A stretch of 38,292 bases of DNA, from NCBI GenBank assembly GCA_946183335.1, contig CAMGZN010000001.1, forward strand, positions 1-38,292, read 5' to 3'. This stretch comes from an uncultured Bacillales bacterium. Its GTDB lineage: Bacteria; Bacillota_I; Bacilli_A; RFN20; CAG-826. Below, in pieces: positions 7,640-37,911 of this stretch. Each line of letters opens with the position of its first letter. The stretch's first letter is position 1. Under the pieces are notes generated by a model. That model saw nothing but the letters and a program-made list of their open reading frames with translations. It had not been told where the DNA came from and did no database searches. The position numbers and the translations under genes were made by a program.

Positions 7640-7678
7640 ATTTTTAAAAATAAAAGCGAGTTCGATGGAGAACTCGCT
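7640..7678 (-). terminator. Rho-independent terminator ending the long catabolic operon
   Basis: The minus strand reads AGCGAGTT-ctccatcg-AACTCGCT followed by TTTTATTTTT, 22 nt after the ygeW-like stop. Confidence 0.75.
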
Positions 7679-7700: not shown

Positions 7701-8711
7701 TTAACGGCGATCGCTTGGGAGCTTATCGTGAACAAATAATGCCATAACTGCTTTAGCAGTGTGGATTCTGTTCTCGGCTTCTTGATAAACCACCGATTGT
7801 GGTCCGTCGATAACCTCATCAACAACTTCGTTAACACGGTCGGCTGGAAGGGCGTGCATGTAACGGCATGTTGGTTTGGCTAAAGCCATTTTTTCTGGTG
7901 TACACTTCCATGCTTTCAGAGCAAGTAAGGCATCATCGACAACTGTGGTTGATTGGTTGGTGACCCAAGAACCCCAGTTCTTTGGGAAGACGACATCAGC
8001 ATCTTTATAAGCGGCATCCATGTCGTGAGTAATGGTTAATGAACCACCATTTTCAGCGGCATTTTTGCGGGCTTTTTCGATAACCCAGTCTGGTAAATCG
8101 TAACCTTCTGGATAAGCTAAGGTAACATCAATACCATAGCGTGGGAATAAGAGAACTTGAGAAACTGGAACTGAAATTGGTTTCTTGTGAGTTGTGGCCA
8201 TCGCCCAAATAACAGAAACTTTTAAGTTCTTGGTTTTTCCAAATTCATCTTCAATTGTCATTAAGTCCGCTAGAGCTTGCATTGGGTGATATAAATCACA
8301 TTGTAAGTTAATGATTGGGACTGTGGACCATTTAGCCATTTCGCGGATGTATTTGTTTCCTAAGCCCCAGTTACAATAACGGCAAGCGATCATGTGACCA
8401 AAGCTTGAAAGAATAACCGCGGTATCCTTGGCAGATTCACCATGAGCAATTTGCATCATGGATGTATCAAGGAATGTGGCGTGTCCGCCAAGTTGAGCCA
8501 TACCACTTTCGAAAGAGTTACGAGTTCTTGTTGATTGTTCAAAGAACATTAAGAAACCTGTTTTTCCTTCTAACCATGGGGTCTTTTCATTGGCGTAGAA
8601 TGCATCTTTAAAGTCATGAGAGACTTTGAGCATGTAGTCGATTTCTTCTTTAGTAAAATCTTCTAAAGTAATGAGATGTCGACCGGCAAATCTTGGTGCA
8701 ATTTTTTCCAT
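7701..8711 (-). CDS. ygeW: YgeW-type carbamoyltransferase (ATCase/OTCase superfamily)
   Basis: STRTR, QIAHGES, NLQCDLYHPMQALADL, DVTLAYPEGYDL, KDADVVFPKNW and YMHALPAD. These are the blocks I recall from E. coli YgeW, not from canonical OTC. AGGAG RBS. Confidence 0.85.
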   Translation of the reverse strand: MEKIAPRFAGRHLITLEDFTKEEIDYMLKVSHDFKDAFYANEKTPWLEGKTGFLMFFEQSTRTRNSFESGMAQLGGHATFLDTSMMQIAHGESAKDTAVILSSFGHMIACRYCNWGLGNKYIREMAKWSTVPIINLQCDLYHPMQALADLMTIEDEFGKTKNLKVSVIWAMATTHKKPISVPVSQVLLFPRYGIDVTLAYPEGYDLPDWVIEKARKNAAENGGSLTITHDMDAAYKDADVVFPKNWGSWVTNQSTTVVDDALLALKAWKCTPEKMALAKPTCRYMHALPADRVNEVVDEVIDGPQSVVYQEAENRIHTAKAVMALFVHDKLPSDRR

Positions 8712-8722
8712 TTTAAATCTCC

Positions 8723-9943
8723 TTATTTTTGCTTAGCGAGGTTTTCAAGGTAAAGACCTGGAATTGTCGCATAGAGAGCTGCACACACGACTAAGTCGTG
8801 TTTTCTGGTCTTTTCATTTGGGGCATGAGCTTCTTTTTCGTCGCCTGGACCAAAGCCAACGCAAGGAATACCAAAGCGTCCCATAATGGAAACACCATTA
8901 GTAGAGAATGTCCACTTATCAATGACTGGAGCTTTCTTGAAGAGTCCTTCATAACCTTGTTTTAAGGATTGAACATAAATGGATTCTTCTGGAATAACCC
9001 AGGTTGGGAAGTAACATTCTTGTTTATAAACAAGACCAGTATAAGCTGGACGTTCATAATCATACATTGAAACTTCAGCTTTCGCACGTTTCACACTTGG
9101 TAAATTTTCAATTTCCGCAATAGAAGTCTTATCGTTTTCTCCGACTGTTAAACGGCGGTCGAGAGAAATCCAGCAGCCATCAGCGACAGCACAACGGCTT
9201 GGAGACTTGTGGAAGATTTGGGAAATTGTGACTGTTCCTTTACCGAGGAATGGGTCATAGGCTAAACCAGTTTCATTGAGTTTTTCAATGTCTTTAATGA
9301 TGTCAGCCATTTTATAAATGGCGTTATCACCACGTTCTGGTGCACTACCATGGCAAGAGATACCACGAACGTTGACTTTGATTTCCATACGTCCACGGTG
9401 TCCACGATAGATTTGGCAGCTTGTTGGTTCAGTAGAAACAACAAATTCTGGTTTAATCTTGTCTTGCTCAATGATGTACTTCCAGCAAAGACCATCACAG
9501 TCTTCTTCTTGGACAGTACCGGTCACGAGTAAGGTGAAGTCATCTTCAAGGCCAAGATCTTTAATGATCTTACCAGCATAAACCATTGAGGCCATACCAC
9601 CTTCTTGGTCACTTGTTCCACGACCACCGATATAAGTTTCATCTTCGAAACCTTCATATGGATCAAATTTCCAGTTTTTAATTTCTCCGATACCGACTGT
9701 ATCGATGTGGGCATCCATGGCGATTAAGTGCTTACCATGGCCAATGTAACCTAAGACGTTGCCCATTGGGTCAATGTCGACTTTGTCGAAACCGACTTTG
9801 AGCATTTCTTCTTTAATACGAAGAACGACTTCTTTTTCGCCACATGACTCAGATGGAATCTTAACCATGTCGCGAAGGAATTTGGTCATATCTTTTTGAT
9901 ATGATTCGGCTTTTTTAAGGATTTCTTCAAATGAAACTTTCAT
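8723..9943 (-). CDS. ygeY: YgeY-type M20-family metallo-amidohydrolase (decarbamoylase/peptidase-like)
   Basis: Long near-identical blocks to E. coli YgeY as I recall it: [69 protein letters not shown] and [11 protein letters not shown]. Confidence 0.9.
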
Positions 9944-11313
9944 TATTTAATTTCCTTTCCGCGCATTTCTTTAATCTTCTTATCGTATTCGAAGACTTTG
10001 TTATATTCATTTTCCCAGAATTCTGGTTTTCTCATCGCGTCGAGGTATTCTTGTTTGTAACCGAATTTTAACCAGTCACGTTCTTTTTGCTTAAAGAGTT
10101 TTTCTTTGGCTTCTTTACCACGAGTATCTAACACATAACTTGTGTCAGCTCCCATAAAGACGTCATTGAACCAACGGTCTAAAACGTTATCAGTCACTTC
10201 AAGTTCACGTTCGTGTAGGTTTTCAATAACTGATGGATAGCGGTCGAATGAATCTGTAGCGATAGTCACAACGTTATCATCTGGTCCAAGTTTGAGGTAT
10301 TTTGCCATTTTGATGGCACCTAAGATGTTACAAATACCGGAAACACCGAAGAGGTTTTCCATTTCCTTAGCAACTTTGGCTGGAACACCATGTTTTTCAA
10401 GGATATTCGCACCTTCATGGATCACAGCTAAACCACGGACACAATCATCATCAATGATTTGAGTGATAAAGTCTGTTGTTAAAGCGTTATGAATGAGGGT
10501 AATCATCTTATCGCCGATACCTTCAATACGGTGCTGTCCTAAACCACCATTGGTGAGTGTTGAACATTCATGTGGTTCAAGAGCAACAACCTTACATTCT
10601 GGGAAGACTTTCTTAATTTGATCACCAGCAGCTAATGTACCAGCGGAACCAGGCGCTGAACAGAAACATGCGACACGACCATTACCAATACCTTTGACAG
10701 CTTCGACACAGGAATTACCTGTAACGTGTCTATGGAAACGATAGTTTGGTAAGAGTTCGAATTGAGCAAGAGTTCTGTTTTTTGGATTCTTCTTTAATTC
10801 GTAAGTTCTTTCGAGAGTAAGAATAACGTCTGATTCGGAACCTGGAGTTAAATCGAGTTTGGCTCCGTATTTTGAAATACGTTCATATCTTTCTTTCGAC
10901 ATGTTGTCTGGCATGATAACGATGGCGTCATACTTCATTAAGTTTGTAATGTAGCTAACACCGATACCGAAGTTGCCAGTTGATGGTCCAAGAATTGTGT
11001 GTTTTCCTGGAATAATTTCCCCATCCACACAACCTTCCATAAGTGTGGCATAAGCTGGACCCACTTTGTGGGAACCAGATGGGAAGTTCTTACCAAATAA
11101 GACAACGATGTTGGCGTCAACACCAGTTAAGGCTTTTGGTAAGACGATTTTGTTAACCTCATCTTTTTCGTTTTTCCAAGTAATGTTGAAGAGGTTAATT
11201 GGATCAAGTTCATTTTCTTTGATCGCTTTGAGTGCCTTAGCTCTCACTTCTGGGTCTTGGTGTGATGGATTAAGCATCTCATCATACGTTGGCCCAAACG
11301 GAATTTTTGACAT
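9943..11313 (-). CDS. PLP-dependent fold-type II enzyme (Trp-synthase-beta/cysteine-synthase superfamily; OrtB-like size)
   Basis: [12 protein letters not shown] (candidate PLP-lysine motif of the TGSHK type), [12 protein letters not shown] and SAPGSAGT (phosphate-binding loop). 456 aa. TAATG-fused to ygeY. Confidence 0.65.
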
Positions 11314-11314
11314 A

Positions 11315-12559
11315 CTAAATAGCTCCTTTTTCTTTCAAAAATTTATCCAATTCTTCAAGGTTTGGTTTCATCGGTTCAGGCATGGATACCGCCTTTTGAC
11401 CGTTGACTGGATCTTTTAGACCATTACCAGTCACAATGGTTGTCACAGTTTCACCAGGTTTAATAATTCCTTGTTGCACTGCTTTCTTAATGCCGGCTAT
11501 TGCAGCCACGCCAGCTGGTTCACCGAAGATGCCTTCGGTTCTTCCAAGTAGCGACATGGCTTTAATAATATCACTGTCTGGTACTGAAATCCAAGCCCCA
11601 TGCGATAATTTTATCGCATTTTGTGCTTTTACTGGGTTTCTTGGGATTCCGACAGCAATCGAATCGGCAATGGTGTTTTCATCAGCTTCTTTGAGTGGTT
11701 CGCCAGTCTCAGAAGCAATCACAAATGGAGCACATCCAGTTGATTGAACACCAAGGATTTTTGGAACTTTTTTAATCAAACCTAACTTAAAAAACTCCGC
11801 AAAACCCTTATAAACGCCACCAACTGTGCATCCGTCACCAACAGATACAGCGACCCAATCAGTTGGTTCAAAGTTCAGCTGTTCAGCAATTTCCATTGAG
11901 ACAGTTTTCTTTCCTTCGACCATGAATGGGTTGATAGCAGCATTACGGTTGTACCATCCGTATTTATCGATCGCGGCTTTAGAGAGTTGAAAAGCGGCTT
12001 TGTAGTCGCCATCAACTTTAACTAAAGTAGCGCCGTATAAACAAATTTGAGTTGCTTTACCAATTGGAGCACGTTTTGGAACAAAGATAACTGCGTTTAA
12101 TCCCATATGTGCCGCTTGGCAAGCACAGCTAGAGGCAGCGTTGCCTGTTGAAGAACACGCAATTGTTTTTGCGCCTGCTTCAATAGCTTTTAAAACAGCT
12201 ACTCCGCTAGCTCTATCTTTAGATGAACCACTTGGATTTAATCCGTCGTCTTTGACGTAGAGTTCTTTTACGCCAAGTTCTTTTTCAAGACGACGGGCTC
12301 GATAAAGTGGGGTCCATCCGACTCGTAACATTTCATCAATGTGGTCTTCTTGAATGCCCATAATTGGAGCATAACGCCACATCGAGTAGTTACGATTCTT
12401 TTCAAAATATTCACGGGTTAAAACTTTCTTTAATGCGTCGTAATCATAAACAACATCAAGAATGCCTTTTTCACCACAATGTGGACAAGTAAGAGAAACT
12501 TCTCCTTCTTTAAATTCGGCTCCACAAAGTGTGCATTTATAACCTTTAATGTAACTCAT
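11315..12559 (-). CDS. Threonine-synthase-family PLP enzyme with an N-terminal zinc ribbon
   Basis: CTLCG...CPHCG ribbon, NPSGSSKDR (PLP-lysine motif), SSTGNAASS and TGNGLKD. Specificity is unknown. Confidence 0.7.
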   Translation of the reverse strand: MSYIKGYKCTLCGAEFKEGEVSLTCPHCGEKGILDVVYDYDALKKVLTREYFEKNRNYSMWRYAPIMGIQEDHIDEMLRVGWTPLYRARRLEKELGVKELYVKDDGLNPSGSSKDRASGVAVLKAIEAGAKTIACSSTGNAASSCACQAAHMGLNAVIFVPKRAPIGKATQICLYGATLVKVDGDYKAAFQLSKAAIDKYGWYNRNAAINPFMVEGKKTVSMEIAEQLNFEPTDWVAVSVGDGCTVGGVYKGFAEFFKLGLIKKVPKILGVQSTGCAPFVIASETGEPLKEADENTIADSIAVGIPRNPVKAQNAIKLSHGAWISVPDSDIIKAMSLLGRTEGIFGEPAGVAAIAGIKKAVQQGIIKPGETVTTIVTGNGLKDPVNGQKAVSMPEPMKPNLEELDKFLKEKGAI

Positions 12560-13413
12560 TGTTTTGCACCTCCAACAATGTCGTCAATGAACTTATTAAA
12601 GATGTTCATCGCAACTGTTTGACGATATTCTTTATTACTTCTTTGGTCATCAATTGGAGCGATAATTTGTGCAAAATCACCAGCAATTTGTGGTTGTTTT
12701 GCTTTTAACTCTTCTAGTGTAAGACCAACAACTTTTGCTTCAAGTTCTTTGCTTCTTGCGGGACGAATTGAGACAGAACCAAAGCAACAAGCGAACTTGG
12801 TAACAACGTTCTTTTTCACTTCGTAATAACCAGCAAAGGAAATCTTGGAAATCGAGTCAGCTCGGCGTGAACCAACCTTAAACCAAAGTTCGCCAGTGTA
12901 TTCAATTTTTGGGAAAATAATTTCAGTAATTAATTCATTTGGATGACGATCGATTTTACGAACGCCAAGAACAAAATCTTTAGCATCGACTAAGCGAACT
13001 CCATCAACTGATTCAAGTTTCACTTTTGCATCAAGAAGAGCATCGATGACAATCGTGTCACCGGCTGGAGATGCATTAGCAATATTTCCCACTAGTGTGC
13101 AGAAATGACGAATATTTGTTGAAGCAACTTCACTAATCGCTTTTCTAAGTAAAGAAGGACAAAGTTTATGGTGTTCAATTTCATGCATTGTTGCGATTGC
13201 ACCAATGTGAACACCGTCTTTGTCTTCGTAGATATTTGCTAGTTCCTTAATATGTGAAACATATAAAACATCTTTATCAAATAAAGGAGCATAACCGGCA
13301 ACATTCTTTTTGATAACCATCATGTCGCTTCCACCGGCAACAATGTAGGCATCATGGTTAGCTAAAAAGTCGAGAGCTTCTTTTTTGGTATAAGCAATTT
13401 TCTTTTCTACCAT
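12556..13413 (-). CDS. Molybdenum hydroxylase (xanthine dehydrogenase family) FAD-binding subunit, set 1
   Basis: CO-dehydrogenase-flavoprotein-type N-terminus (YIVAGGSDMMV, TLVGNIANASPAGD). Overlaps the upstream 2Fe-2S subunit gene by 7 nt. Confidence 0.8.
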   Translation of the reverse strand: MVEKKIAYTKKEALDFLANHDAYIVAGGSDMMVIKKNVAGYAPLFDKDVLYVSHIKELANIYEDKDGVHIGAIATMHEIEHHKLCPSLLRKAISEVASTNIRHFCTLVGNIANASPAGDTIVIDALLDAKVKLESVDGVRLVDAKDFVLGVRKIDRHPNELITEIIFPKIEYTGELWFKVGSRRADSISKISFAGYYEVKKNVVTKFACCFGSVSIRPARSKELEAKVVGLTLEELKAKQPQIAGDFAQIIAPIDDQRSNKEYRQTVAMNIFNKFIDDIVGGAKQ

Positions 13414-13880
13414 AATCCAGCTCCTTTCTTACTGGCAATTTCCACCGCTTGAACAATAGCTTGATAGCCAGTGCAGCGGCATAAGTTACCACTCATATGA
13501 GCTCGAATCTCTTCCTCTGTTGGGTGAGGATTGTGAGATAAGAGTGATTGTGCAGCAATAATCATTCCTGGAGAGCAGAAGCCACATTGGGACCCACCAA
13601 CTTCAGCAAATGCTTTTTGTAAAACATCAAATTGTTTGGTTTCTTTGAAGCCTTCAATAGTAACAATCTCGTGACCTTCAACGTTGGCTAATGGAAGCAA
13701 GCAGCTATTCACCGAATAACCATCCATTAAAACAACACAGGCTCCACAAGAACCTTCGCCACAGCCTTCTTTAACTCCTTTTAAAGAGAAGTGATCACGG
13801 AGGACGTCGATTAAGCGCATACTTGGATCAAGCTCAACAGCAACATCTTTGCCGTTTAATTTAAACTTAACGCTTGTCAT
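13407..13880 (-). CDS. Molybdenum hydroxylase [2Fe-2S] subunit, set 1
   Basis: CGEGSCGACVV plus QCGFCSPG and NLCRCTGY, the two 2Fe-2S motifs of the XdhC/CoxS type. GGAGGTG RBS. Confidence 0.9.
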   Translation of the reverse strand: MTSVKFKLNGKDVAVELDPSMRLIDVLRDHFSLKGVKEGCGEGSCGACVVLMDGYSVNSCLLPLANVEGHEIVTIEGFKETKQFDVLQKAFAEVGGSQCGFCSPGMIIAAQSLLSHNPHPTEEEIRAHMSGNLCRCTGYQAIVQAVEIASKKGAGLW

Positions 13881-15966
13881 TGTTAATCACCTCCATGATG
13901 TATTCTGGTGTGGCTGGAATCTTATTCACTTTGTGACCGATTGCTTGTTCGATTGCAAGTGCAATCGCTGGAGCTCCACCAACAAGAGTTAATTCGCCCA
14001 TTCCTTTGGCGCCGTTAGCACCATAAATAAATGGGTTATCAATAAATGCTGTCTCCATTGGAGGAGCGTCTTCAAATGTTGGAATAATGTAGTCGGTTAA
14101 TGAACGATTACGGAATTTACCATCTTTAATTCCCATGTGCTCGAGATAACCGTAACCTAAACCTTGGAGTAATCCTCCATCAGCTTGGCCAACAGCAATA
14201 CGTTCATCAACAACTCGGCCAACATCGTAAGTTGACCAGCAATGATCAACTTTAATTTGGTAGGTTACTGGATCAAATGAGACTTCAACAACGTTGACAC
14301 CCCAAGAATAAGATGGGTAGGCATCGCCTTGCATTGTATCTTCATCCCAGTGGATATAACTTGGTCCGACATAACCTTCAACATGTTCTTGTCGAACTCC
14401 ACTCTTCCAGATTTTCTTTAATTGTTTAGCGCCTTTTTCCATGAGAAAACCAACAATAATAATTGTTCTTGAAGCCGCGGTTGGTCCGGAGTCAGGAGTA
14501 TGATCAGTATCAGCTGCTTCCATTGTGCATTGTTCAGCTGGTAAACCAAGTGTGTTTGACACAATACGTGCTAAGGTTGTACGGTTTCCTTGACCAAAGT
14601 CAGCACTTGAAGCATAAACATGGACATGATCATTCTCATCCTTAACGAGTTTGACTTTACCATTAATGATTGTTGATTCGCCTGAACCAGTAAATCCACA
14701 TCCGTGAAGGAATAAGGACATACCGATTCCTTTGTTAGATCCTGGTTTAGCGTACTCAACGACTTTACGTTTGTAGTCGGACATTTCCATGGCTTTGTCT
14801 AATAATTGAGGAAGAATAATTGGGTCATGGAACTTACCAGAATTTGTTGTGATATCTCCTTGTTTTGCAAGGTATTTCATTCTTAACTGTAATGGATCAA
14901 CTCCAAGTTCTTTAGCGACATGATGAATAAACATTTCCATCGCAAAGATTGTTTGTGGAGAGCCAAATCCACGGAACGCAGCAGTCGGAACGGTGTTTGT
15001 GCAATAAACATCACCAACCACATCTAAGTTTTCAAACACGTATGCGTTACAAGATGCAATAAGAGCACGTGATAAGACAACTCCAGAGCAGCCTTTGTAG
15101 GCACCACCATTAAGTTTGACACGAATCCTTAAACCAAGAATCTCGTTGTTCTTACCAATAAACGCTTCATATGTCGAAACTGATGGGTGACGTTTTGTTG
15201 TATAAGCAATATCTTCAAAACGCTCATAGCACATTTTTACTGGGCGATGAATTTTATTAACCGCCACAGCAAGTTGTGAACCAGTTAAGCTTGGATAGTG
15301 TTCTTTACCGCCAAATGCTCCACCAACAGCAGGTTGTTTCACACGAACTTTTTCTGGAGCAATACCAAGAGCTCGGGCAACAGCCTTTCTAATATAGAAC
15401 GGACATTGCATCGAACCAGTTAAATAGAACTTATCATCTTCATCTATATAACAGAGAATGCCTTGTGGTTCAATGTAGGCTTGTTCTTGATAACCAGTCT
15501 CATAAGTTTCTTTAATTGTTTTAACAGCGTTTTTCTCAGCCTTAGAAAAATCACCTTTTGTAAATTCTTTATGAATATACGAATTCACAAGATCGAAAAC
15601 TGGTTTTTCTTCTTCGTAAATAACCGAGATTTGACGGCATAATTTGTGCAAAACCTCTTTATTTTCTCCAACAAACAAACCAATCGATTCACCGACATAA
15701 TGAACTTCTTTGTCAGCAAAAATTGGCCAATCGGAGAAGATAATATTAACAACGTTTTCACCAGGAATATCTTTTGCTGAAATCCAATAATAACCTTTTG
15801 GAAGTTCAGGCAATTTGATTTCCTTTATCTTTCCTTTAGCAATTGTTGATCTCACGGTTTCAGCATAAAGCATTCCTGGTAACTCAAAGTCATCAGTGAA
15901 CTTTGCTTCTCCGCGAATCTTTTCGGGGAAGTCAATTTTTGGTGTACTTGACTTATAAAATTCCAT
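13867..15966 (-). CDS. Molybdenum hydroxylase molybdopterin-binding large subunit, set 1 (699 aa)
   Basis: Xanthine dehydrogenase/aldehyde oxidase family blocks: a/b-hammerhead N-terminus, VGGAFGGKE, AFRGFGSPQ and GMGELTLVGGAPAIA. Confidence 0.88.
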   Translation of the reverse strand: MEFYKSSTPKIDFPEKIRGEAKFTDDFELPGMLYAETVRSTIAKGKIKEIKLPELPKGYYWISAKDIPGENVVNIIFSDWPIFADKEVHYVGESIGLFVGENKEVLHKLCRQISVIYEEEKPVFDLVNSYIHKEFTKGDFSKAEKNAVKTIKETYETGYQEQAYIEPQGILCYIDEDDKFYLTGSMQCPFYIRKAVARALGIAPEKVRVKQPAVGGAFGGKEHYPSLTGSQLAVAVNKIHRPVKMCYERFEDIAYTTKRHPSVSTYEAFIGKNNEILGLRIRVKLNGGAYKGCSGVVLSRALIASCNAYVFENLDVVGDVYCTNTVPTAAFRGFGSPQTIFAMEMFIHHVAKELGVDPLQLRMKYLAKQGDITTNSGKFHDPIILPQLLDKAMEMSDYKRKVVEYAKPGSNKGIGMSLFLHGCGFTGSGESTIINGKVKLVKDENDHVHVYASSADFGQGNRTTLARIVSNTLGLPAEQCTMEAADTDHTPDSGPTAASRTIIIVGFLMEKGAKQLKKIWKSGVRQEHVEGYVGPSYIHWDEDTMQGDAYPSYSWGVNVVEVSFDPVTYQIKVDHCWSTYDVGRVVDERIAVGQADGGLLQGLGYGYLEHMGIKDGKFRNRSLTDYIIPTFEDAPPMETAFIDNPFIYGANGAKGMGELTLVGGAPAIALAIEQAIGHKVNKIPATPEYIMEVINNDKR

Positions 15967-17063: not shown

Positions 17064-17065
17064 CG

Positions 17066-18355: not shown

Positions 18356-19662
18356 TATTTAACCTCCCCACAATTTAAGTTCTTTCCCTGATGTGGAACA
18401 ATTTTTCGATTTTTTAATACAAATTGTCCACGGATAAGGACTGTTTCAAATTCACCAGAACCAAGAATTCCATCATAAATGGAGTAATCACAAGTTCCGT
18501 GATTTTCCTTTTCAAAATAGTCTTCTTTTTCTAAAAACACCGACAAATCTGCGTCCATTCCAACTTTGATTTCTCCTTTGGTTGGGAAATCTTGGATTTT
18601 TGCAGAATTTAGTGACATTTTGTCGATGATTTCATCTCCAAAACGTCGATACATTGTTGAGAAAGAATGTTCAATTCCTCCAACACCAAGAGGGAATCCT
18701 TTTAAAGTTGGATAATCCTTGTCTTTCTTCATAAATGAACAATGGTCGGTACCGATTGTTTCGACATCCTTATAGTAAGCAGTTAAAAGTTGTCTTTCTC
18801 GTTCACCTCTTAGTGGAGGGGCAAACGTAAATAGTTTTCCATTCTTGCCTTCTAAAACAGAGTTATTAAAGATGAAATATTGCGGACAGCTTTCAACAAA
18901 GAAATTCTTATTGAGAATGTCTGAAAACTGTTCTTTTAGAGCTTTTAATGTTTCACCACTTGAGCAATGAACCATGTAGAAGTTTCCGCCAGTCTCACGA
19001 ACCATCTTTGCAAGCTTTAAGGCTTCACTAGTTTCACTCATTGATGGACGGGAAACTGGTAAATCCTTAAATGTATATTCATCACGTAAATCAATTAGAT
19101 CATCGTTTTCAATATGTGCTTCGATTAAGACGTTATACTTCTTGGAAAGTTTAAGAAGTTCTTCAATATCTTTCTCATAAGTACGTCTTCCAGTGTCACT
19201 ATAAGTTGTGAACAACTTAATTGTTCTCATTCCAAGCTTAACAACGGTTTTGACGTACTCTTCTAAATCTCCGTTTGGCATTTTGATGCAAGCGTGCATG
19301 TGATAATCAACGATACACTTCTTCGCGAGTTCAAGACGTTCATAGAACGACTTTTCTAAATCTTTCGCATTACTTGTTGGATCAAGGAAATCAACAATTG
19401 TGGTTACACCGCCATAGGCAGCACAAACGGAACCAGTATAAAAGTCATCCACGGAAGTTAATCGACCGCAATTGAGTTCAAAATGAACATGTGGATCAAT
19501 TAATCCTGGTAGGACTTTTTTACCACTAGCATCAAGCACTTCTTTGGCTGCCGGTTCATCTTTTCCTATATAGGAAATTTTCTCACCTAAAACAGCCACA
19601 TTGACTTTCTGCCACTTGTGGTTAAACCAAACTAATCCGTTTTTAACCAGTAGATCATTCAT
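18355..19662 (-). CDS. hyuA: Hydantoinase/dihydropyrimidinase-family cyclic amidohydrolase (HyuA/YgeZ-like)
   Basis: GLIDPHVHF, IKLFTTY (candidate carboxylated Lys), EAHIEN and GTDHC. Confidence 0.8.
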   Translation of the reverse strand: MNDLLVKNGLVWFNHKWQKVNVAVLGEKISYIGKDEPAAKEVLDASGKKVLPGLIDPHVHFELNCGRLTSVDDFYTGSVCAAYGGVTTIVDFLDPTSNAKDLEKSFYERLELAKKCIVDYHMHACIKMPNGDLEEYVKTVVKLGMRTIKLFTTYSDTGRRTYEKDIEELLKLSKKYNVLIEAHIENDDLIDLRDEYTFKDLPVSRPSMSETSEALKLAKMVRETGGNFYMVHCSSGETLKALKEQFSDILNKNFFVESCPQYFIFNNSVLEGKNGKLFTFAPPLRGERERQLLTAYYKDVETIGTDHCSFMKKDKDYPTLKGFPLGVGGIEHSFSTMYRRFGDEIIDKMSLNSAKIQDFPTKGEIKVGMDADLSVFLEKEDYFEKENHGTCDYSIYDGILGSGEFETVLIRGQFVLKNRKIVPHQGKNLNCGEVK

Positions 19663-21977
19663 TATTTCTTTTCTTTAACCGCCTTAAAGATTGCTTCTGG
19701 AGTAATTGGCAAGTGATGGACTCTTACGCCAAACGCGTTATAAACAGCGTTACATAAAACAGCTGGTGGAGTATCAATACCAATTTCACCAACAGATTTC
19801 GCACCAAATGGTCCTGTTGGTTCATATGAATCAGCAAACTCGGTGACTAGTTCACCAATCTCGTGACGAGTTGGAATATGATAAACATCAAAGTTTGTTG
19901 TTAATAATTTACCTTTGTCATTATAAATGACTTCTTCAGATGAGGCCATACCATAGCCTTGGGCAATACCGCCTTCAACTTGGCCTTTGGCGAGCATTGG
20001 GTTAATCGTGGTACCACAGTCAGTAACTGTCACATACTTAATCATCTTGTACTCGAAAGTTTCAGTATCAAATTCAAATTCTCCAAAGGCCGCCATAAAT
20101 GGAGGTGGAGAAACATGGCCATGGAAGCTCTCCGTCACGGCAATTTGACGGGTGTCTTGGTTATAAAGACGATTGGTAGCTAAATCTTCTAAGGAAAGAG
20201 ATTTTTCACCAGATGTAAATATCTTACCGTCAAATTCGACGCTTCCCACTTTCACATTCATGTACTCTGCAGCTTCGCGAACAAGACGATCTCTCATCTT
20301 TTGAGCCGCATTCCATGCGGCATTACCACTAACATAGGTTGTGGAGGAAGCATAAGCACCACAGTCGTATGGAGTTAAGTCAGTATCAGACGAATAGATA
20401 ATGACTTTGTCAACCGTTGTGCCAAGTTCTTCAGCAACGATTTGGGAAATCATTGTGTCAGAACCTTGTCCAATATCTGTCGCACCAACAGTGACCATGT
20501 AAGAACCACCGTCGTTAAGTTTAATCGTACAGGAACCCATGTCTAAGAATGGAATTCCGGAACCTTGCATAGCAATCGCACAGCCAACGGCACGAACTTT
20601 GTGTGGTCCAACTTCTTTTCTTGGCCACTTCTTGTCCCATTCGATGAGTTCACGACCGCGCTTAATGCAATAAGGAAGCTTGCAGCTTTCCATAATCATC
20701 GCAGTACCTTCAGTACCTTCACCCATAATTTCAAAGATTGGGGAAGTTTCTTTTTCCTTCATTGAGTTAATCTCGCGAAATTTGATTGGATCCATGCCAA
20801 TCTTTTCAGCGAGTTCATCCATGATGGATTCAACGGCATAATTGCCTTGAATCGCACCATAACCACGATATGCACCAGCAGAGACGTGGTTCGTATAAAC
20901 AACTTGTCCACCGAATTTAACAGCCTTTGCTTTGTTGTACAAAGGTAAAACCTTTGAACCAACAATCATAAAAACAGTCAGAGCGTGCTCGCCATAGGCG
21001 CCTGTGTCACTTAAAGCACGGCAATCAATCGCTTGAATGACGCCATCTTTATTCGCACCAACTCGCAGTGTGATACGCATCGGGTGACGTGTATATGTAG
21101 AGCCAAATACCTCTTCACGGGTGAAGACGCATTTACTTGGCTTCTTTGTTCTTAATGTAACTAACGCACAAAACATTTCTCCATGGAAAGCTTGTTTTCC
21201 ACCAAAACCACCGCCAACGCGTGGTTTAACAACACGAATCTTTTCCACTGGAAGACCTATTGTCTTTGACATAATTCTTCTCATGTGGAATGGGGTTTGT
21301 GTTGTGGAGTAAATGACTAAACGGTTATGTTCGTCAAGACGAGCATTACATGTATGAGGCTCGATCATCGCGTGGGCTTGAGCCTGAGAATAAAATGTGT
21401 CTTCGACAACATATTCACATTTCTTTAATTCTTCTTCGACGTTTCCAACTTCCATCTCATAGGAGGCAGCAACGTTCTTCTTTGGATCAAAACCAATTGG
21501 GAACATTTCGTGAATCCCATCTTCTGGGTGGATGACAGATTTATTTTCAAAGGCTTGTTCAAAGTCGAGAACAGGTTCTAAGACTTCGTAATCAACTTTG
21601 ATTTTCTTCATTGCTTGAAGAGCAACTTCTTCACTAACGGCAGCTACTGCAGCGACTTCATCTCCAACATAACGAGCATATTCATCAAAGATGAACTTAT
21701 CGTGTGGAGATGGTTCTGGATAACCTTGTCCAGCACGTGTAAAGGAGACGTGTGGAACGTTGTCTTTTGTTAAGATACAAGCGACTCCAGGAACTTTTTC
21801 AGCTTCACTGACGTCGATCGATTTAATGCGGGCAAAAGCGTGTGGGCTTCTAAGAAGCTTCACAATTAAGGAGTTTTGATCAGCAAGGTCATCAGTATAG
21901 TATGAACGACCTTGCATGAGGCCTTTGCCATCAACACTTGGAGTAATGTTGTTAACAACACGGAAATTCTTTTTCAT
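19662..21977 (-). CDS. Molybdenum hydroxylase molybdopterin-binding large subunit, set 2 (771 aa; XdhD Mo-domain-like)
   Basis: VGGGFGGKQ, AYRGYGAIQ and KSVGEIGIDTPPAV. TAATG fusions at both ends. Confidence 0.88.
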   Translation of the reverse strand: MKKNFRVVNNITPSVDGKGLMQGRSYYTDDLADQNSLIVKLLRSPHAFARIKSIDVSEAEKVPGVACILTKDNVPHVSFTRAGQGYPEPSPHDKFIFDEYARYVGDEVAAVAAVSEEVALQAMKKIKVDYEVLEPVLDFEQAFENKSVIHPEDGIHEMFPIGFDPKKNVAASYEMEVGNVEEELKKCEYVVEDTFYSQAQAHAMIEPHTCNARLDEHNRLVIYSTTQTPFHMRRIMSKTIGLPVEKIRVVKPRVGGGFGGKQAFHGEMFCALVTLRTKKPSKCVFTREEVFGSTYTRHPMRITLRVGANKDGVIQAIDCRALSDTGAYGEHALTVFMIVGSKVLPLYNKAKAVKFGGQVVYTNHVSAGAYRGYGAIQGNYAVESIMDELAEKIGMDPIKFREINSMKEKETSPIFEIMGEGTEGTAMIMESCKLPYCIKRGRELIEWDKKWPRKEVGPHKVRAVGCAIAMQGSGIPFLDMGSCTIKLNDGGSYMVTVGATDIGQGSDTMISQIVAEELGTTVDKVIIYSSDTDLTPYDCGAYASSTTYVSGNAAWNAAQKMRDRLVREAAEYMNVKVGSVEFDGKIFTSGEKSLSLEDLATNRLYNQDTRQIAVTESFHGHVSPPPFMAAFGEFEFDTETFEYKMIKYVTVTDCGTTINPMLAKGQVEGGIAQGYGMASSEEVIYNDKGKLLTTNFDVYHIPTRHEIGELVTEFADSYEPTGPFGAKSVGEIGIDTPPAVLCNAVYNAFGVRVHHLPITPEAIFKAVKEKK

Positions 21978-22429
21978 TATTTCTTACCTCCAAGATATTT
22001 TTCAACAGCGTTGCCTTGGCTTTGTAAACCAGTGCAACGGCAGAGGTTACCAACCAAGTAATCATCAATTTCTTCACGAGTTGGGTGTGGGTTTTCTTCT
22101 TTTAAGGCGTGAACAACAAGCGCAAGTGCTGCTGAGCAGTATCCACATTGGTCGGCGCCTTCTTTAGCAAAATATTCGGAAAGCTCACCAGCTTCTTCTT
22201 GAATAGATTCGACAGTCATTACTTTTTTTCCTTCGATTGAAGCTGTTAAAACAGAACAAGATAGAGTTGGTTTTCCATTAACTAGAACTGTACAAGCTCC
22301 GCAAGCGGAGGCATTGCAACCTTTCTTGACCGATTTCACCCCATTGTTACGAAGTGAATCAAGGAGGTATTCTCCTGGTTGAATGTGATAAATCACATCT
22401 AGTCCATTTAAATTAAATTTGACTTCCAT
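21977..22429 (-). CDS. Molybdenum hydroxylase [2Fe-2S] subunit, set 2
   Basis: CNASACGACTV, QCGYCSAA and NLCRCTG. Confidence 0.88.
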   Translation of the reverse strand: MEVKFNLNGLDVIYHIQPGEYLLDSLRNNGVKSVKKGCNASACGACTVLVNGKPTLSCSVLTASIEGKKVMTVESIQEEAGELSEYFAKEGADQCGYCSAALALVVHALKEENPHPTREEIDDYLVGNLCRCTGLQSQGNAVEKYLGGKK

Positions 22430-23206
22430 TTATTTAACCTCCTCTAAACCACGTTTTAAGTAAACACGAGCTAAGTGAGAACGATATTCACTCTTAGCGG
22501 ACATTGAGTCGCCTATTTTAAGTTCTTGCATAGCAAGTTCAACAGCCTTCTCAATGTCTTTTCCACCTTCGTTAAGGTATTTCATCGCACCTTCGCAAAC
22601 ATAAGCGACTAATGGACGAGAACCAACAACAACTTTGTATTCTTTCGCTTTGGTAACACAGACATTTAAGATTGGATAATCAAGAGCGGTCATCTTCACT
22701 TTTTTAAAGAAAGATTTCGCTCCGCTCTTATAAATTCTAATTTCAGTTAAAATGCCATCGGCAAAGCCTGGTTTCTTAACATATTCATCTAAAGAAACAA
22801 CTGCCTCTGGATAGAAAACTAAATCAACTTTAAAACCAAGAAGGGCAGTAATGACATCTGAGAAACCATATTTTCCGTAAACGGAACCGCCAATTGTAGC
22901 ACAGTTTCTAAACGCTGGTCCCATGATTTGATGAACAGCCTCAGAGAGAACTCCACCACCTATCTTTTTGATGATTGGCGATGTTTCAAACTCTCTTTGA
23001 GTGACCATTGCGCCAACAGAGACATACTCTTTTTCTTCCTTGATTTGGTCTAAACCAAGTCGAGAAAGATCAATGAGTTTATCAACTTCACCATTGCCTT
23101 TCTTTAACCATAAACCACCACCAAGAACTTTGTTCTTAAGCGATGCTTTTTTGAGGGAGTAAGCTTCCTCTAATGAAGCTGCACGAACATATTCATTTAC
23201 TTTCAT
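22430..23206 (-). CDS. Molybdenum hydroxylase FAD-binding subunit, set 2 (YgfM-like size, 258 aa)
   Basis: FAD_binding_5-type N-terminus (KVLGGGLWLKKG, CATIGGSV). Abuts the 2Fe-2S gene with no gap. Confidence 0.75.
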   Translation of the reverse strand: MKVNEYVRAASLEEAYSLKKASLKNKVLGGGLWLKKGNGEVDKLIDLSRLGLDQIKEEKEYVSVGAMVTQREFETSPIIKKIGGGVLSEAVHQIMGPAFRNCATIGGSVYGKYGFSDVITALLGFKVDLVFYPEAVVSLDEYVKKPGFADGILTEIRIYKSGAKSFFKKVKMTALDYPILNVCVTKAKEYKVVVGSRPLVAYVCEGAMKYLNEGGKDIEKAVELAMQELKIGDSMSAKSEYRSHLARVYLKRGLEEVK

Positions 23207-23208
23207 GT

Positions 23209-23778
23209 TTACTTCCTTTCTAAAAGTTCACAGAACTTGTGATAATCACGAATCGTATCAATATCGAGACAAATAAATGGATCGTCAACAGGAACACGAA
23301 CTTTTTCCGATTCATATTTTTCTAAAAACTCATGCATGTTTGAGTTAATTGATGATTGTTTAATTTCATCCAAATATTGAGCAGACAAAAATAATGGGTG
23401 TCCATCATGTCCTTCAAATGTTGGAACGCGAATGCTTCCTGGAGCTCTTAAAAGAGCTTGATATGTGTCCTTGGAAACATTTGGTATGTCTCCAGGAATT
23501 AAAAGAATGTCTTCATTATGAGCCTCGGCAATTCCGGCTTTCATAGATGAGAACATTCCACAAGCAAAGTATTCATTAAAAACGATGTCGACATTGAGTG
23601 TTTTTAATACTGGCTCAAGTTCGTCGTGGTATCGACCAGTCACCACAACAATGCGGTCAACAAAAGGACGCATCGCTTCAATCGTGTAAGAGATAAGTGG
23701 TCGATGATTGATTTCTAGTAATAACTTATTGAGTTTGGCCCGGCTGGAATAACCGCCTGCAAGAATAATTCCTAGCAT
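23209..23778 (-). CDS. MobA/MocA-family molybdenum cofactor nucleotidyltransferase (YgfJ-like)
   Basis: MLGIILAGGYSSR nucleotide-binding start and PGDIP. I moved the start to ATG 23778, because the ORF-track N-terminal extension overlaps the predicted promoter. No clear SD. Confidence 0.75.
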   Translation of the reverse strand: MLGIILAGGYSSRAKLNKLLLEINHRPLISYTIEAMRPFVDRIVVVTGRYHDELEPVLKTLNVDIVFNEYFACGMFSSMKAGIAEAHNEDILLIPGDIPNVSKDTYQALLRAPGSIRVPTFEGHDGHPLFLSAQYLDEIKQSSINSNMHEFLEKYESEKVRVPVDDPFICLDIDTIRDYHKFCELLERK

Positions 23779-23803
23779 ACAATATTTCCAAAATATATAT
23801 AAT

Positions 23804-23832
23804 ATTTTACACGAGCGAACACTTGTAGGCAA
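23804..23832 (-). promoter_or_regulatory. Sigma-A-type promoter of the long catabolic operon
   Basis: The minus strand reads TTGCCT-17 nt-TAAAAT (-35 at 23827-23832, -10 at 23804-23809). The spacer contains GTTCGCTCGTG (ACACGAGCGAAC on the plus strand), i.e. CGAA-type half-sites. Confidence 0.6.
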
Positions 23833-23858
23833 GCGAGCACGCCACATTAACCTTGAAT

Positions 23859-23889
23859 GTATAAAATATATGCGTGTTTTGCTGAAGAT
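23859..23889. promoter_or_regulatory. Shared regulatory block, copy A (GTATAAAATAT-atg-CGTGTTTTGCTG-a-AGAT)
   Basis: 27 identical positions with 29866-29894. It lies 26 nt upstream of the -35 of the minus-strand operon promoter and inside the divergent carbamate kinase promoter region. Confidence 0.55.
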
Positions 23890-23925
23890 TTTGTATAATA
23901 GTTGGGTACGAAAGAGGTAGAAAAA

Positions 23926-24843
23926 ATGTCACGTTATGTTGTCTCTTTAGGTGGCAATGCATTAGGCAACAATGCCGAAGAGCAAAAGGCTCTTCTTAAA
24001 GGTGTTGCAAAAAGCATTGTGCACTTAATTAAATTAGGAAATGAAGTTGTTATCGTCCACGGAAATGGACCACAAGTAGGCATGATTAATCTTGCTTTTA
24101 CTGAATCGACTTCTGCGCCAGATATGCCATTCCCAGAGTGTGGTGCAATGAGCCAAGGTTACATTGGATTCCATATTCAAAATGCCATTCAAAATGCATT
24201 AAAGGATGAAGGAATTCAAAGAAACGTTGCCACTGTTGTCACACAAGTGCTCGTTGATAAGGATGATCCACTTTTCAAATCTCCATCAAAACCAGTTGGA
24301 GCATTCTATAGCGAAGAAGAAGCAAAGAAAATTGCTGCTGAAAAAGGTTATACGATGAAAGAAGATGCTGGTCGTGGTTGGAGGAGAGTTGTTGCTTCGC
24401 CACTTCCAATTGATGTTGTTGAAAAAGAATCCATTTCTCGTCTTGTTAAAGCAGGAGATGTTGTTATCTGTGCTGGCGGAGGTGGAATTCCAGTAATTAA
24501 AAATGGCAATCACTTAGAAGGTATCGCCGCAGTTATCGACAAAGACTATGCATCCGCAAAAGTTGCTGCTCTTGTTGACGCTGATTATCTTGTTATTTTA
24601 ACCGCCGTCGATAACGTTTATATCAACTTCCGTAAACCAGACGAAAAGAAACTCGAAAATGTTTCTAAGGCTCAAATGGAAGAGTATTTGAAAACAGATT
24701 ATTTTGCTAAAGGAAGCATGTATCCAAAGGTTAATGCCTGTATTAAATTCCTTAACGAAAAGCCTGGTAAAACCGCGATTATTTCATCCTTAGAAAAAGC
24801 AAATTTAGCTGTTGAATTAAAAGCAGGAACAATCATTAAATAA
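23926..24843 (+). CDS. Carbamate kinase (YqeA/ArcC family)
   Basis: SLGGNALG, VHGNGPQVG, EDAGRGWRRVVASP, GGGGIPV and IDKDYASA. I moved the start to ATG 23926 (AAGAGG RBS). The TTG at 23902 is unlikely. Confidence 0.92.
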   Translation: MSRYVVSLGGNALGNNAEEQKALLKGVAKSIVHLIKLGNEVVIVHGNGPQVGMINLAFTESTSAPDMPFPECGAMSQGYIGFHIQNAIQNALKDEGIQRNVATVVTQVLVDKDDPLFKSPSKPVGAFYSEEEAKKIAAEKGYTMKEDAGRGWRRVVASPLPIDVVEKESISRLVKAGDVVICAGGGGIPVIKNGNHLEGIAAVIDKDYASAKVAALVDADYLVILTAVDNVYINFRKPDEKKLENVSKAQMEEYLKTDYFAKGSMYPKVNACIKFLNEKPGKTAIISSLEKANLAVELKAGTIIK

Positions 24844-27133: not shown

Positions 27134-27150
27134 TTAAGACTCCTTTTCTG

Positions 27151-33310: not shown

Positions 33311-33390
33311 TTTTTTATATATTTCTTAACTCAAAAGATATCTTCTCTCTTTCTTTTATAAGAAATGGAGTGTATATTTATAGAGTTATT

Positions 33391-35822: not shown

Positions 35823-36348
35823 TACCAAACGTTACGTAATAACAGCGATTACTCTTGGTTTAATCTGCGCAGCTAGTGGAGCTTTAATTGGTGTCACAAA
35901 CGCCATTACTGCAAAACGAATTGACCAAAACGAAAAAGACAATATTCAACGTGGTTTTGCAGAAATTTACGGTCAAAACCCGGTTGTTTCTGATCCAAAG
36001 CCAATTGAAGGAAAGGATTATACAAATCAAGTTTATACAGTCGAAATTGAAGGTGTCGAAGGTGTGCAATATGCCTTTAGAGCTGATGGTTCAAACATGT
36101 ATGGAAAGATTTCTATGCTTGTTGGTTTTGATAGCCTTAATCAATTTAAAGGAATGTCAATCATTGCTAATACTCAAACATATGCTTCGACATTGAACCA
36201 AAACTACATCGACAAAATTAAGACCGCTGAAAACAAAAGTGAAAAGATTGAAGACGTAAAGTGCGGAGCGACTTATGGCGCGACTTTAATTCGTGACATG
36301 ATTCATGAAGCACAAGAGGTCGCAAAACAAATAAATCCAAAGGAATAA
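35815..36348 (+). CDS. rnfG: Rnf complex subunit G (FMN-binding)
   Basis: N-terminal TM anchor and an FMN-attachment-type motif (KCGATYGAT). I moved the start to ATG 35815 (GGAGG 8 nt upstream), overlapping the rnfD stop. Confidence 0.85.
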   Translation: MANTKRYVITAITLGLICAASGALIGVTNAITAKRIDQNEKDNIQRGFAEIYGQNPVVSDPKPIEGKDYTNQVYTVEIEGVEGVQYAFRADGSNMYGKISMLVGFDSLNQFKGMSIIANTQTYASTLNQNYIDKIKTAENKSEKIEDVKCGATYGATLIRDMIHEAQEVAKQINPKE

Positions 36349-36349
36349 T

Positions 36350-37683: not shown

Positions 37684-37685
37684 TT

Positions 37686-37910: not shown

Positions 37911-37911
37911 G

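Follow-up and report, generated by a model that had tools for sequence, protein, structure and literature searches.

The subject of this analysis is an operon of 14 genes, accompanied by a divergently transcribed carbamate kinase gene, in a 38,292-nt stretch of DNA from an uncultured Bacillales bacterium (assembly GCA_946183335.1, contig CAMGZN010000001.1, positions 1 to 38,292 of the forward strand; 'the window' hereafter denotes this whole stretch). The locus is a complete-looking operon for purine/urate catabolism of the 2,8-dioxopurine type, assembled as a mosaic of interchangeable modules. We regard it as probable that the operon and the carbamate kinase together encode an anaerobic route from purines to a C3 unit, in which a pair of pyridoxal 5'-phosphate (PLP) enzymes replaces YgeX (DpaL), the last enzyme of the known pathway. 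One member of the pair is related to threonine synthase (ThrC), and the other, here called PLP456, has the fold of cysteine synthase (CysK). The occurrence of such a pair in the place of YgeX is apparently undescribed, and the 2025 pathway studies, the 2022 preprints and the searchable literature do not mention the pair in a purine context.

The backbone of the pathway is known. The route from urate via 2,8-dioxopurine and 2,3-diaminopropionate to pyruvate was reconstituted in 2025, with enzyme activities demonstrated in E. coli, C. difficile and C. sporogenes (PMC12507026; bioRxiv 10.1101/2025.04.24.650524; commentary PMC12990295). According to these studies (PMC12507026; bioRxiv 10.1101/2025.04.24.650524), urate is reduced to 2,8-dioxopurine by XdhD-YgfM or, in C. 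sporogenes, by XdhAC; 2,8-dioxopurine is dearomatised by YgfK, or by UacX in C. difficile; SsnA and HyuA carry out two ring openings that yield 2,3-diureidopropionate; YgeW phosphorolyses one ureido group and YqeA uses the resulting carbamoyl phosphate to make ATP; and YgeY removes the second ureido group by hydrolysis, leaving 2,3-diaminopropionate for YgeX to convert to pyruvate and ammonia. C. difficile hydrolyses the first ureido group with UacY instead of having it phosphorolysed by YgeW (PMC12507026). The intermediates have been proposed to be D (R)-configured (PMC12990295), and YgeX takes both isomers of diaminopropionate (PMC12507026).

The genes of the locus are as follows (window coordinates, strand, product and basis of the assignment). 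Identities to E. coli proteins come from BLAST searches with all open reading frames (ORFs) of the window that encode 100 aa or more; the reference locus, L001, is the ygeW-xdhD neighbourhood of E. coli. Family membership was judged against the curated NCBIfam cut-offs.

23209..23778, minus strand: MobA/MocA-like nucleotidyltransferase, 189 aa from ATG 23778 (PF12804, 121 bits; 31% identity to E. coli MocA)
22430..23206, minus strand: FAD-binding subunit 1 (FAD1), 258 aa, YgfM/XdhB-like partner of Mo771 (PF00941 and PF03450; 28% identity to YgfM over 159 aa)
21977..22429, minus strand: [2Fe-2S] subunit 1 (FeS1), 150 aa (PF01799 and PF00111; 41% identity to XdhC)
19662..21977, minus strand: molybdopterin subunit Mo771, XdhD-like (36% identity to XdhD vs 32% to XdhA)
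18355..19662, minus strand: HyuA-like cyclic amidohydrolase, 435 aa (D-hydantoinase is the best NCBIfam match; 27% identity to HyuA)
17066..18355, minus strand: SsnA-like amidohydrolase, 429 aa (SsnA models are the best matches; 30% identity to SsnA)
15966..17063, minus strand: UacX-type reductase, 365-374 aa (PF01180 and Fer4 domains)
13867..15966, minus strand: molybdopterin subunit Mo699, similar to xanthine dehydrogenase (XDH) (best solved relative bovine XDH, 206 bits)
13407..13880, minus strand: [2Fe-2S] subunit 2 (FeS2), 157 aa (PF01799 and PF00111; 42% identity to XdhC)
12556..13413, minus strand: FAD-binding subunit 2 (FAD2), 285 aa (PF00941 and PF03450; 27% identity to XdhB)
11315..12559, minus strand: ThrC-like PLP enzyme with an N-terminal 4-Cys ribbon, 414 aa (PALP, 261 bits)
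9943..11313, minus strand: PLP456, CysK-fold PLP enzyme, 456 aa (PALP, 76 bits)
8723..9943, minus strand: YgeY M20 hydrolase, 406 aa (TIGR03526, 691 bits vs cut-off 321.5; 72% identity to E. coli YgeY)
7701..8711, minus strand: 'minimal YgeW' carbamoyltransferase, 336 aa (OTCace_N and OTCace)
23926..24843, plus strand: carbamate kinase, 305 aa from ATG 23926 (TIGR00746, 386 bits vs cut-off 358; 52% identity to YqeA)

The original prediction, made from the sequence alone, had recognised in this gene set the E. coli ygeW-xdhD neighbourhood, and the BLAST comparison bears this out (YgeY 72%, YqeA 52%, XdhD and YgeW both 36%, SsnA 30%, HyuA 27%). The two molybdenum (Mo) hydroxylase systems it saw are represented by the Mo771 and Mo699 sets, and the ATP link it drew through a carbamoyltransferase and a carbamate kinase stands as well, with both genes present and the kinase above its equivalog cut-off. 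Its finding that the window has no YgeX, YgfK, YqeB or YqeC holds in the same BLAST searches. The order of chemistry that it laid out comes close to the route since demonstrated; its remark that most steps are biochemically unassigned is outdated by the 2025 reconstitutions (PMC12507026; bioRxiv 10.1101/2025.04.24.650524). The 'extra PLP enzymes' which it singled out as a distinctive feature have turned out to be a conserved two-gene module in YgeX's place.

N-terminus-specific PLP456 patterns were run on 185,579 species-representative genomes (GTDB), at least 599 stretches of which matched, and relatives of PLP456 occur in at least 522 species. Loci were compared among the 80 best PLP456 loci, where PLP456 is 73-99% identical; the ThrC-like family comprises 73 members in this set, and the pair is evaluable in 72 loci. 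PLP456 and the ThrC-like protein occur together in all 72 (adjacent in 66 and nearby in six), and YgeY is present in 70 of 73 loci. No YgeX ortholog was found in the window or in the 80 related loci, where only the ThrC-like ORFs themselves match YgeX (21-30% identity); the best candidate in the window scores 61 bits with the DpaL model, the cut-off of which is 276 bits. Within the cluster, PLP456 is also the protein with the highest conservation; the Izemoplasma-type locus L065, for example, has it at 74% identity, compared with 42-67% for the others.

Telling evidence comes from six Bacillota metagenome-assembled genomes (MAGs; L054, L056, L064, L070, L071 and L081), in which the PLP pair lies in clusters of the E. 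coli type with a different layout. All six clusters encode canonical YgeW (63-66% identity to E. coli) and YgeY (69-71%), and five also encode YqeA (50-54%). HyuA (39-40%), SsnA (32-36%), YgfK (41-50%; L081 has the UacX type), MocA and YqeB are found as well wherever the flanks extend far enough. The PLP456 gene is located between those for YgeW and YgeY, which is the position of ygeX in E. coli. Since the pair takes the YgeX position and YgeY is almost always present, consumption of diaminopropionate by the pair is the simplest interpretation. We thus infer from these comparisons that the two proteins act on 2,3-diaminopropionate and remove its nitrogen, possibly via serine. That two enzymes are needed may mean that one partner racemises its substrate or is D-specific, given the proposed D intermediates. 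Genes of serine metabolism, which adjoin the module in independent layouts, suggest a route via serine, with β-replacement by the CysK-like enzyme and subsequent deamination, and the thiosulfate response of the zrk13 cluster would allow for a sulfur nucleophile.

Neither protein is what its routine annotation says. With the broad thrC model (TIGR00260) the ThrC-like protein exceeds the cut-off (211 vs 167 bits), and it keeps the PLP lysine; but in every one of the 73 ThrC-like proteins A, A, M/L and D stand at T88, S155, R160 and N188 (Thermus numbering), positions invariant in four solved ThrCs. Because these four positions are replaced in every member, we conclude from the alignment that the protein is not a threonine synthase. 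PLP456, for its part, has retained three features of CysK, namely the lysine, the STGN carboxylate loop and the Gln, and differs from CysK by an N-terminal extension of 60 aa, a C-terminal extension of 90 aa and an insertion of 12 aa. It scores far below the cut-offs of the cysK (134 vs 351 bits), cysM (85 vs 394 bits) and SbnA (60 vs 350 bits) models, and full-length relatives with 29-45% identity do not reach the cut-off of any NCBIfam family; judged by these scores and by its architecture, PLP456 is not a cysteine synthase. An AlphaFold2 model, computed from a shallow alignment (pLDDT 66, with residues 79-189 below 50), retrieved with Foldseek only the folds of CysK and β-cyanoalanine synthase, a result uninformative as to substrate.

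YgeX (DpaL) is itself a PLP enzyme of fold type II, like both proteins of the locus, and has the same position in the cluster; it is, however, a single protein, whereas the locus has two, each with 21-27% identity to YgeX over partial alignments. The pair resembles the ThrC and CysK (O-acetylserine sulfhydrylase) families in fold, in the PLP lysines and in the loops that bind carboxylate, and some ThrC subfamilies possess a Zn-ribbon N-terminus as the ThrC-like protein does. A survey by Li et al. scored 'YgeX' in gene neighbourhoods by Pfam PF00291 alone, which the PLP proteins of the locus would satisfy.

The PLP pair is not the only module that has been exchanged. The reductase, described in the original prediction as PreA-like and taken there as a sign of a different route, consists of an FMN-binding DHO_dh domain (PF01180) and a C-terminal 2x[4Fe-4S] part and lacks an FAD/NAD(P)H module. 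It does not point to a different route: the same domain make-up has been published for UacX, the YgfK substitute of C. difficile (PMC12507026), the comparison with C. difficile UacX (Q181U4) being one of description and not of sequence. The strongest evidence for the equivalence of the UacX type and YgfK is provided by Izemoplasma sp. B36 (L057), where a YgfK with 41% identity to the E. coli protein sits in the reductase slot of an otherwise syntenic operon. Across the 80 loci the UacX type occurs in 52 and YgfK in eight, never together. The reductase of the locus is thus presumed, by homology and position, to be a 2,8-dioxopurine reductase equivalent to YgfK.

A similar exchange concerns the carbamoyltransferase, for which the label 'YgeW-type' does not hold by model thresholds (NF005538, 194 vs 453 bits; TIGR03316, 183 vs 500 bits), and which also falls short of the ornithine carbamoyltransferase (OTC) cut-off (TIGR00658, 261 vs 281 bits). 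The protein is 36% identical to E. coli YgeW and, at 336 aa compared with 396 aa, aligns without the four YgeW insertions and both terminal extensions. It nevertheless has the YgeW motifs QIAHGE, NLQCDxxHP, KPxSVP, PEGYDL, PK[NS]W and H[AC]LPAD, and at the position of DxxxSMG, the ornithine-binding motif of OTC, it reads FPKNWGSW, where YgeW has PKSWAPY. The short form is found in 61 loci and true YgeW in six, and the two are never found together. Although it stands outside the family thresholds, this 'minimal YgeW', a form apparently undescribed, probably works like YgeW.

As regards the two molybdenum enzymes, Mo699 has about 25% identity each to XdhA and XdhD, and the residue following GGxFGGK is Glu in Mo699 and Gln in XdhA, XdhD and Mo771; we take this position to be that of Glu802 in bovine XDH. 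Mo771 has the XdhD-specific insertion with Glu606 (GEG motif), which is missing from XdhA and Mo699, and Glu606 of XdhD has been proposed to orient urate (Li et al.). The best solved relatives of Mo771 are 4-hydroxybenzoyl-CoA reductase (319 bits), a reductive dehydroxylase, and nicotinate dehydrogenase (191 + 135 bits), and 2,8-dioxopurine dehydrogenase clusters with nicotinate dehydrogenase according to a Dodd-lab preprint. On these sequence features we lean towards Mo771 being the urate 6-dehydroxylase (2,8-dioxopurine dehydrogenase) and Mo699 a xanthine/hypoxanthine dehydrogenase. In sister operons, XdhC_CoxI (YqeB-like) and NTPase_1 genes replace the MocA, FAD1, FeS1 and Mo771 genes (L082-L084, 340-1636; L048, 390-1631), and the selenium/maturation module and the second molybdenum enzyme thus appear to be alternative 'heads' of one operon. 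The MocA-like protein is presumed, by homology, to make the molybdopterin cytosine dinucleotide cofactor.

The remaining enzymes differ in how firmly they can be placed. YgeY and the carbamate kinase exceed the cut-offs of their families (691 vs 321.5 and 386 vs 358 bits, respectively), and by analogy with the enzyme characterised in PMC12507026, YgeY would hydrolyse the remaining ureido group to give 2,3-diaminopropionate. The original labels 'SsnA-type' and 'HyuA-type' are sound as statements of homology but not of family membership, as both amidohydrolases represent divergent lineages that score below the cut-offs. The SsnA-like protein has the motifs SVIDHHAS, CFETxDR and SNMNNxVG in common with E. 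coli SsnA, and its gene is translationally coupled to that of the reductase; the HyuA-like protein keeps all of its metal ligands (HxH, Lys, His, His, Asp).

Taken together, the locus shares with the 2,8-dioxopurine pathway of E. coli and C. sporogenes a molybdenum hydroxylase with Fe-S and FAD partners, putative ring openers of the SsnA and HyuA types, a carbamoyltransferase with a carbamate kinase for ATP, YgeY, a MocA-type gene and a C3 end unit. It departs from the E. coli pathway in having a UacX-type reductase for YgfK, the 336-aa 'minimal YgeW', the ThrC-like and CysK-like pair for YgeX, an XdhD homolog split from its Fe-S domain and a second XDH-like enzyme in the same operon, whereas YqeB and YqeC are not present locally and the SsnA-like and HyuA-like proteins show only 30% and 27% identity. 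The C. difficile variant likewise employs a PydA-like FMN/Fe-S reductase, UacX, in place of YgfK, with ferredoxin as the probable donor (PMC12507026); it has UacY, lacks a carbamoyltransferase and a carbamate kinase and keeps YgeX, while the locus shows the opposite on all of these points. The conversion of a ureido group by phosphorolysis into carbamoyl phosphate and of the latter into ATP by carbamate kinase is common to the locus and the arginine deiminase pathway, but the locus has no arginine deiminase and its carbamoyltransferase is without the ornithine-binding DxxxSMG. The swap to the UacX-type reductase has already been published; the minimal YgeW and the PLP pair are, apparently, undescribed.

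Based on these comparisons, the route in this organism may be envisaged as follows. The XDH-like enzyme (Mo699, FeS2, FAD2) would oxidise hypoxanthine and xanthine to urate, the XdhD-like enzyme (Mo771, FeS1, FAD1) would convert urate to 2,8-dioxopurine by taking off its 6-oxo group, and the UacX-type FMN/Fe-S reductase would dearomatise this product. The SsnA-like enzyme would then open the six-membered (reduced pyrimidine) ring and the HyuA-like enzyme the hydantoin, leading to 2,3-diureidopropionate, one ureido group of which the short YgeW-like carbamoyltransferase would turn into carbamoyl phosphate, a source of ATP through carbamate kinase. YgeY would hydrolyse the second ureido group, and the ThrC-like protein and PLP456 would take the nitrogen off the resulting 2,3-diaminopropionate to yield pyruvate, directly or via serine. 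Homology, synteny and the swaps between YgfK and UacX, between YgeW and the short carbamoyltransferase and between YgeX and the PLP pair are direct observations. The activities in this organism, the division of labour between the molybdenum enzymes and the whole PLP step are inferred.

The loci that harbour the PLP pair offer some independent indications of a purine context. The hosts of the 80 best loci are rumen and gut 'Erysipelotrichaceae'/Bacilli MAGs, Izemoplasmatales, Acholeplasmataceae and other Bacillota, the closest genome record (99% identity, L002) being a goat-reticulum MAG of a 'Bacilli bacterium', and the gene order in most of them is HyuA-like, SsnA-like, reductase, Mo699, FeS, FAD, ThrC-like, PLP456, YgeY and carbamoyltransferase. 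In Izemoplasma-type operons a gene for a 575-aa adenine deaminase is inserted between those for the FAD subunit and the ThrC-like protein (L065, 7032-8756; also L057 and L069), and XDH loci of Izemoplasmatales were previously noted to adjoin purine deaminases (Wasmund et al., PMC8289736). The YqeB-like and NTPase_1 genes at the start of other operons point the same way. A cluster of H. nucleasis zrk29 with a matching gene list, matched by product list and not by sequence, is induced by DNA plus RNA (PMC10470597). The cluster G4Z02_01105-01195 of strain zrk13 is up-regulated by 100 mM thiosulfate, with no purine link drawn by the authors, and the Izemoplasma transcriptome study interpreted the two PLP genes as belonging to amino-acid metabolism (PMC8397711). 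By its product list this cluster is a probable ortholog of the operon; its response to thiosulfate might reflect a redox effect, the sulfuration of a cofactor or the supply of a sulfur nucleophile to the CysK-like enzyme. In Litorilinea, a relative of PLP456 is encoded beside a luciferase-family gene, a reductase type reported for Chloroflexota clusters (Li et al.).

Several observations weigh against the proposed pathway or against parts of it. The SsnA-like protein has the SsnA models as its top matches (319 and 296 bits, the next family reaching 109) and is still below their cut-offs of 444 and 455 bits; the HyuA-like protein scores 226 bits with the D-hydantoinase model (cut-off 393) and is only 27% identical to HyuA; and the carbamoyltransferase and the MocA-like protein (123 vs 186 bits for the MocA equivalog) are below their family cut-offs too. 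YqeB, YqeC and SelD are all missing from the 38-kb window, as are a purine deaminase and any transporter or permease for purines or urate. The search for YgeX covered the window and the 80 loci, and a YgeX gene elsewhere in the genome is conceivable. When the ThrC-like protein is compared with the DpaL residues K77, D120 and D189, the lysine alone aligns and the aspartates are lost, and T88, S155, R160 and N188 are positions that we take to form the O-phosphohomoserine phosphate site of the Thermus enzyme. The PLP pair stands alone among housekeeping genes in L077 and L087 and hence need not be dedicated to purine catabolism; in L087 (Caldilineaceae) the ThrC-like protein is 42% identical and has A, M and D at T88, R160 and N188 and Gly, not Ala, at S155. 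As for the molybdenum enzymes, the Mo699 type adjoins the reductase in all related loci and in most of them is the only one there, operons with XdhC_CoxI and NTPase_1 genes at their head included, and 'XdhD' of C. difficile was itself assigned by proximity, with 25.6% identity to E. coli XdhD. The operon of the window has both molybdenum enzymes, and the pathway as a whole is therefore independent of which of them does which step.

One of the other explanations of the locus concerns the fate of the C3 unit. The PLP module could divert this unit to an amino acid, the CysK-like enzyme exchanging the β-amino or β-ureido group for water or sulfide to form serine or cysteine and the ThrC-like enzyme racemising a D-intermediate or deaminating the product; pyruvate would then arise only through L-serine dehydratase, and purine carbon and nitrogen would feed serine, one-carbon or cysteine metabolism. 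Enzymes of serine metabolism do adjoin the module in independent layouts: in the rumen clade the operon is directly followed by a gene for an Fe-S L-serine dehydratase, the genes for SdaAB, SdaAA and serine hydroxymethyltransferase are found between the PLP456 and ThrC-like genes in a Clostridia MAG (L079, 4516-6164 and 9454-10749), and glycine-cleavage genes occur downstream of the module in L065. PLP456 moreover keeps the carboxylate loop, Gln and Lys typical of β-replacement enzymes, and its solved relatives include Fn1055 of Fusobacterium, presumably an enzyme that makes serine from cysteine. The proposed D (R) intermediates (PMC12990295) would account for the second enzyme, and the induction of the zrk13 cluster by thiosulfate fits in as well. 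Most loci, however, have no serine enzyme near the module, the serine dehydratase gene of the window comes after the terminator and among housekeeping genes, and the residues do not tell replacement from elimination. Diversion to an amino acid seems to us rather unlikely. A related proposal, which we put forward as tentative, is that the pair constitutes an unrecognised two-enzyme end of purine catabolism converting (probably D-) diaminopropionate or a ureido precursor to L-serine or cysteine. If this were true, purine breakdown would feed serine, one-carbon or sulfur amino-acid metabolism, two new PLP activities would be at hand, and the carriers would be genome-reduced nucleic-acid feeders (rumen Bacilli, Izemoplasmatales), some Clostridia and Chloroflexota.

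That the PLP genes are an ordinary biosynthetic threonine synthase and cysteine synthase riding along, with a true YgeX encoded elsewhere, is very improbable. The ThrC-like protein passes TIGR00260, the family of PLP456 is labelled 'cysteine synthase' in the sources, the pair lies away from purine genes in some genomes and the search for YgeX was limited to the window and the related loci; against this stand the four ThrC-invariant active-site positions replaced in 73 of 73 proteins, the distance of PLP456 from the CysK cut-off (134 vs 351 bits) together with its two large extensions, and the presence of the pair in 72 of 72 loci, including those where it lies amid YgeW, YqeA and YgeY in unrelated layouts that are complete but for YgeX. 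Biosynthetic thrC and cysK, besides, lack a reason for travelling together. That the operon serves some other N-heterocycle instead of urate via 2,8-dioxopurine, for instance a pyrimidine, a different oxopurine isomer, nicotinate or a similar compound, is likewise very improbable. A substrate of that kind would suit a reductase of the PydA/dihydroorotate dehydrogenase type, a HyuA-like protein with dihydropyrimidinase as its best model, an SsnA-like protein, a HyuA-like protein and a carbamoyltransferase below their family cut-offs, and a Mo771 whose best solved relative is 4-hydroxybenzoyl-CoA reductase. Yet the 72% identity of YgeY to its E. coli counterpart speaks for shared late intermediates, YgfK (41-50% identity to E. 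coli) occupies the reductase slot in some loci, adenine deaminase is encoded within sister operons, Mo699 resembles XDH and the carbamoyltransferase has YgeW-specific motifs. The purine-to-C3 route with the PLP pair in place of YgeX is the explanation that we prefer.

The backbone of this route being known, its last step with two uncharacterised PLP enzymes presents a concrete target for enzymology. Surveys of uricolytic bacteria score the presence of YgeX (DpaL), and variant lineages are likely to have been undercounted in gut, rumen and sediment metagenomes. The routine annotation of the two PLP genes as 'threonine synthase' and 'cysteine synthase' is a mis-annotation. Engineered urate-degrading probiotics might make use of the compact carbamoyltransferase and of the reductase, which is NAD(P)H-independent.

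The layout of the operon is that of a tightly coupled transcription unit. The ORF listing of the window has 14 co-directional minus-strand ORFs from 23847 to 7701, each with a strong Pfam match, in agreement with the 14 genes from 23778 to 7701 of the original prediction. Successive junctions measure 2, 0, -1, -1, -1, -25, -1, -14, -7, -4, +1, -1 and +11 nt; moving the reductase start to ATG 17063, which has a GGAGG ribosome-binding site 7 nt upstream, turns the overlap of 25 nt into a gap of +2, whereupon all junctions fit the gaps or overlaps of 0-14 nt originally stated. The count of five TAATG stop/start fusions proved exact (FeS1/Mo771, Mo771/HyuA-like, HyuA-like/SsnA-like, reductase/Mo699 and PLP456/YgeY), and most junctions have ribosome-binding sites of the GGAGG type. 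The first gene more plausibly starts at ATG 23778 (MLGIILAGG...) than at the start of the longest ORF at 23847, because in the long ORF the Pfam match does not set in before residue 26, and the candidate promoter would fall within that ORF. The carbamate kinase is divergent as claimed, with its start corrected to the probable ATG 23926 (ribosome-binding site AAGAGG, 305 aa) from TTG 23902.

The control signals and the gene next to the operon are listed below.

23804..23832, minus strand: candidate sigma-70-type promoter, TTGCCT-17-TAAAAT (consensus scan, 9/12)
7655..7678, minus strand: intrinsic terminator of the operon (9-bp stem, 5 G-C pairs)
6407..7618, minus strand: Fe-S L-serine dehydratase, separately transcribed just downstream of the operon and perhaps connected with its end product (TIGR00720, 352 bits vs cut-off 345)

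The promoter element named in the original prediction is indeed present at 23832-23804, but the claim was too strong: the element matches the consensus at nine of 12 positions, and promoter-like sites in the region are not enriched (32 found vs 44.7 expected in a consensus scan against shuffles), so a promoter is not callable from sequence alone. As a sigma-70-type promoter of the operon it is a plausible candidate by its position in the divergent intergenic region only. The terminator was correctly recognised, its stem with five G-C pairs at 7655-7678 being followed by a T-run (TTTTATTTTT). Rfam and tRNA scans for leader RNAs found nothing, and a repeat search for operators in the divergent control region gave AT-rich chance matches only.

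Converging on the carbamate kinase gene are four minus-strand genes (24915-29714) for an NADP-type glutamate dehydrogenase (GdhA), a DUF1015 protein (407 aa, no NCBIfam match), SerC and a SerA-like 2-hydroxyacid dehydrogenase (378 aa). No SerB is visible in this unit, the DUF1015 gene being in the spot expected for phosphoserine phosphatase. A link of the unit to the purine operon was considered and dropped. A corresponding energy-conserving side route, from diaminopropionate and phosphate to O-phosphoserine and on to 3-phosphoglycerate via the adjacent SerC, SerA-like protein and GdhA, was rejected: there is no association in independent layouts among the related loci, the thermodynamics look unfavourable and the ThrC-invariant positions, which we assume to be the phosphate site, are lost. 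Genes for cysteinyl-tRNA synthetase and a SpoU-type methylase occur within a few kb of the PLP pair (window 5046-6389 and 4296-5042; L087 2832-5005), probably as a coincidence involving a conserved housekeeping pair. Towards the end of the window (33370-38292, plus strand) lies an operon for an Rnf-type ferredoxin:NAD+ oxidoreductase (RnfC, D, probable G, E, A and the start of B, running off the window end), which could supply or re-oxidise ferredoxin for the UacX-type reductase and the FAD/Fe-S molybdenum enzymes.

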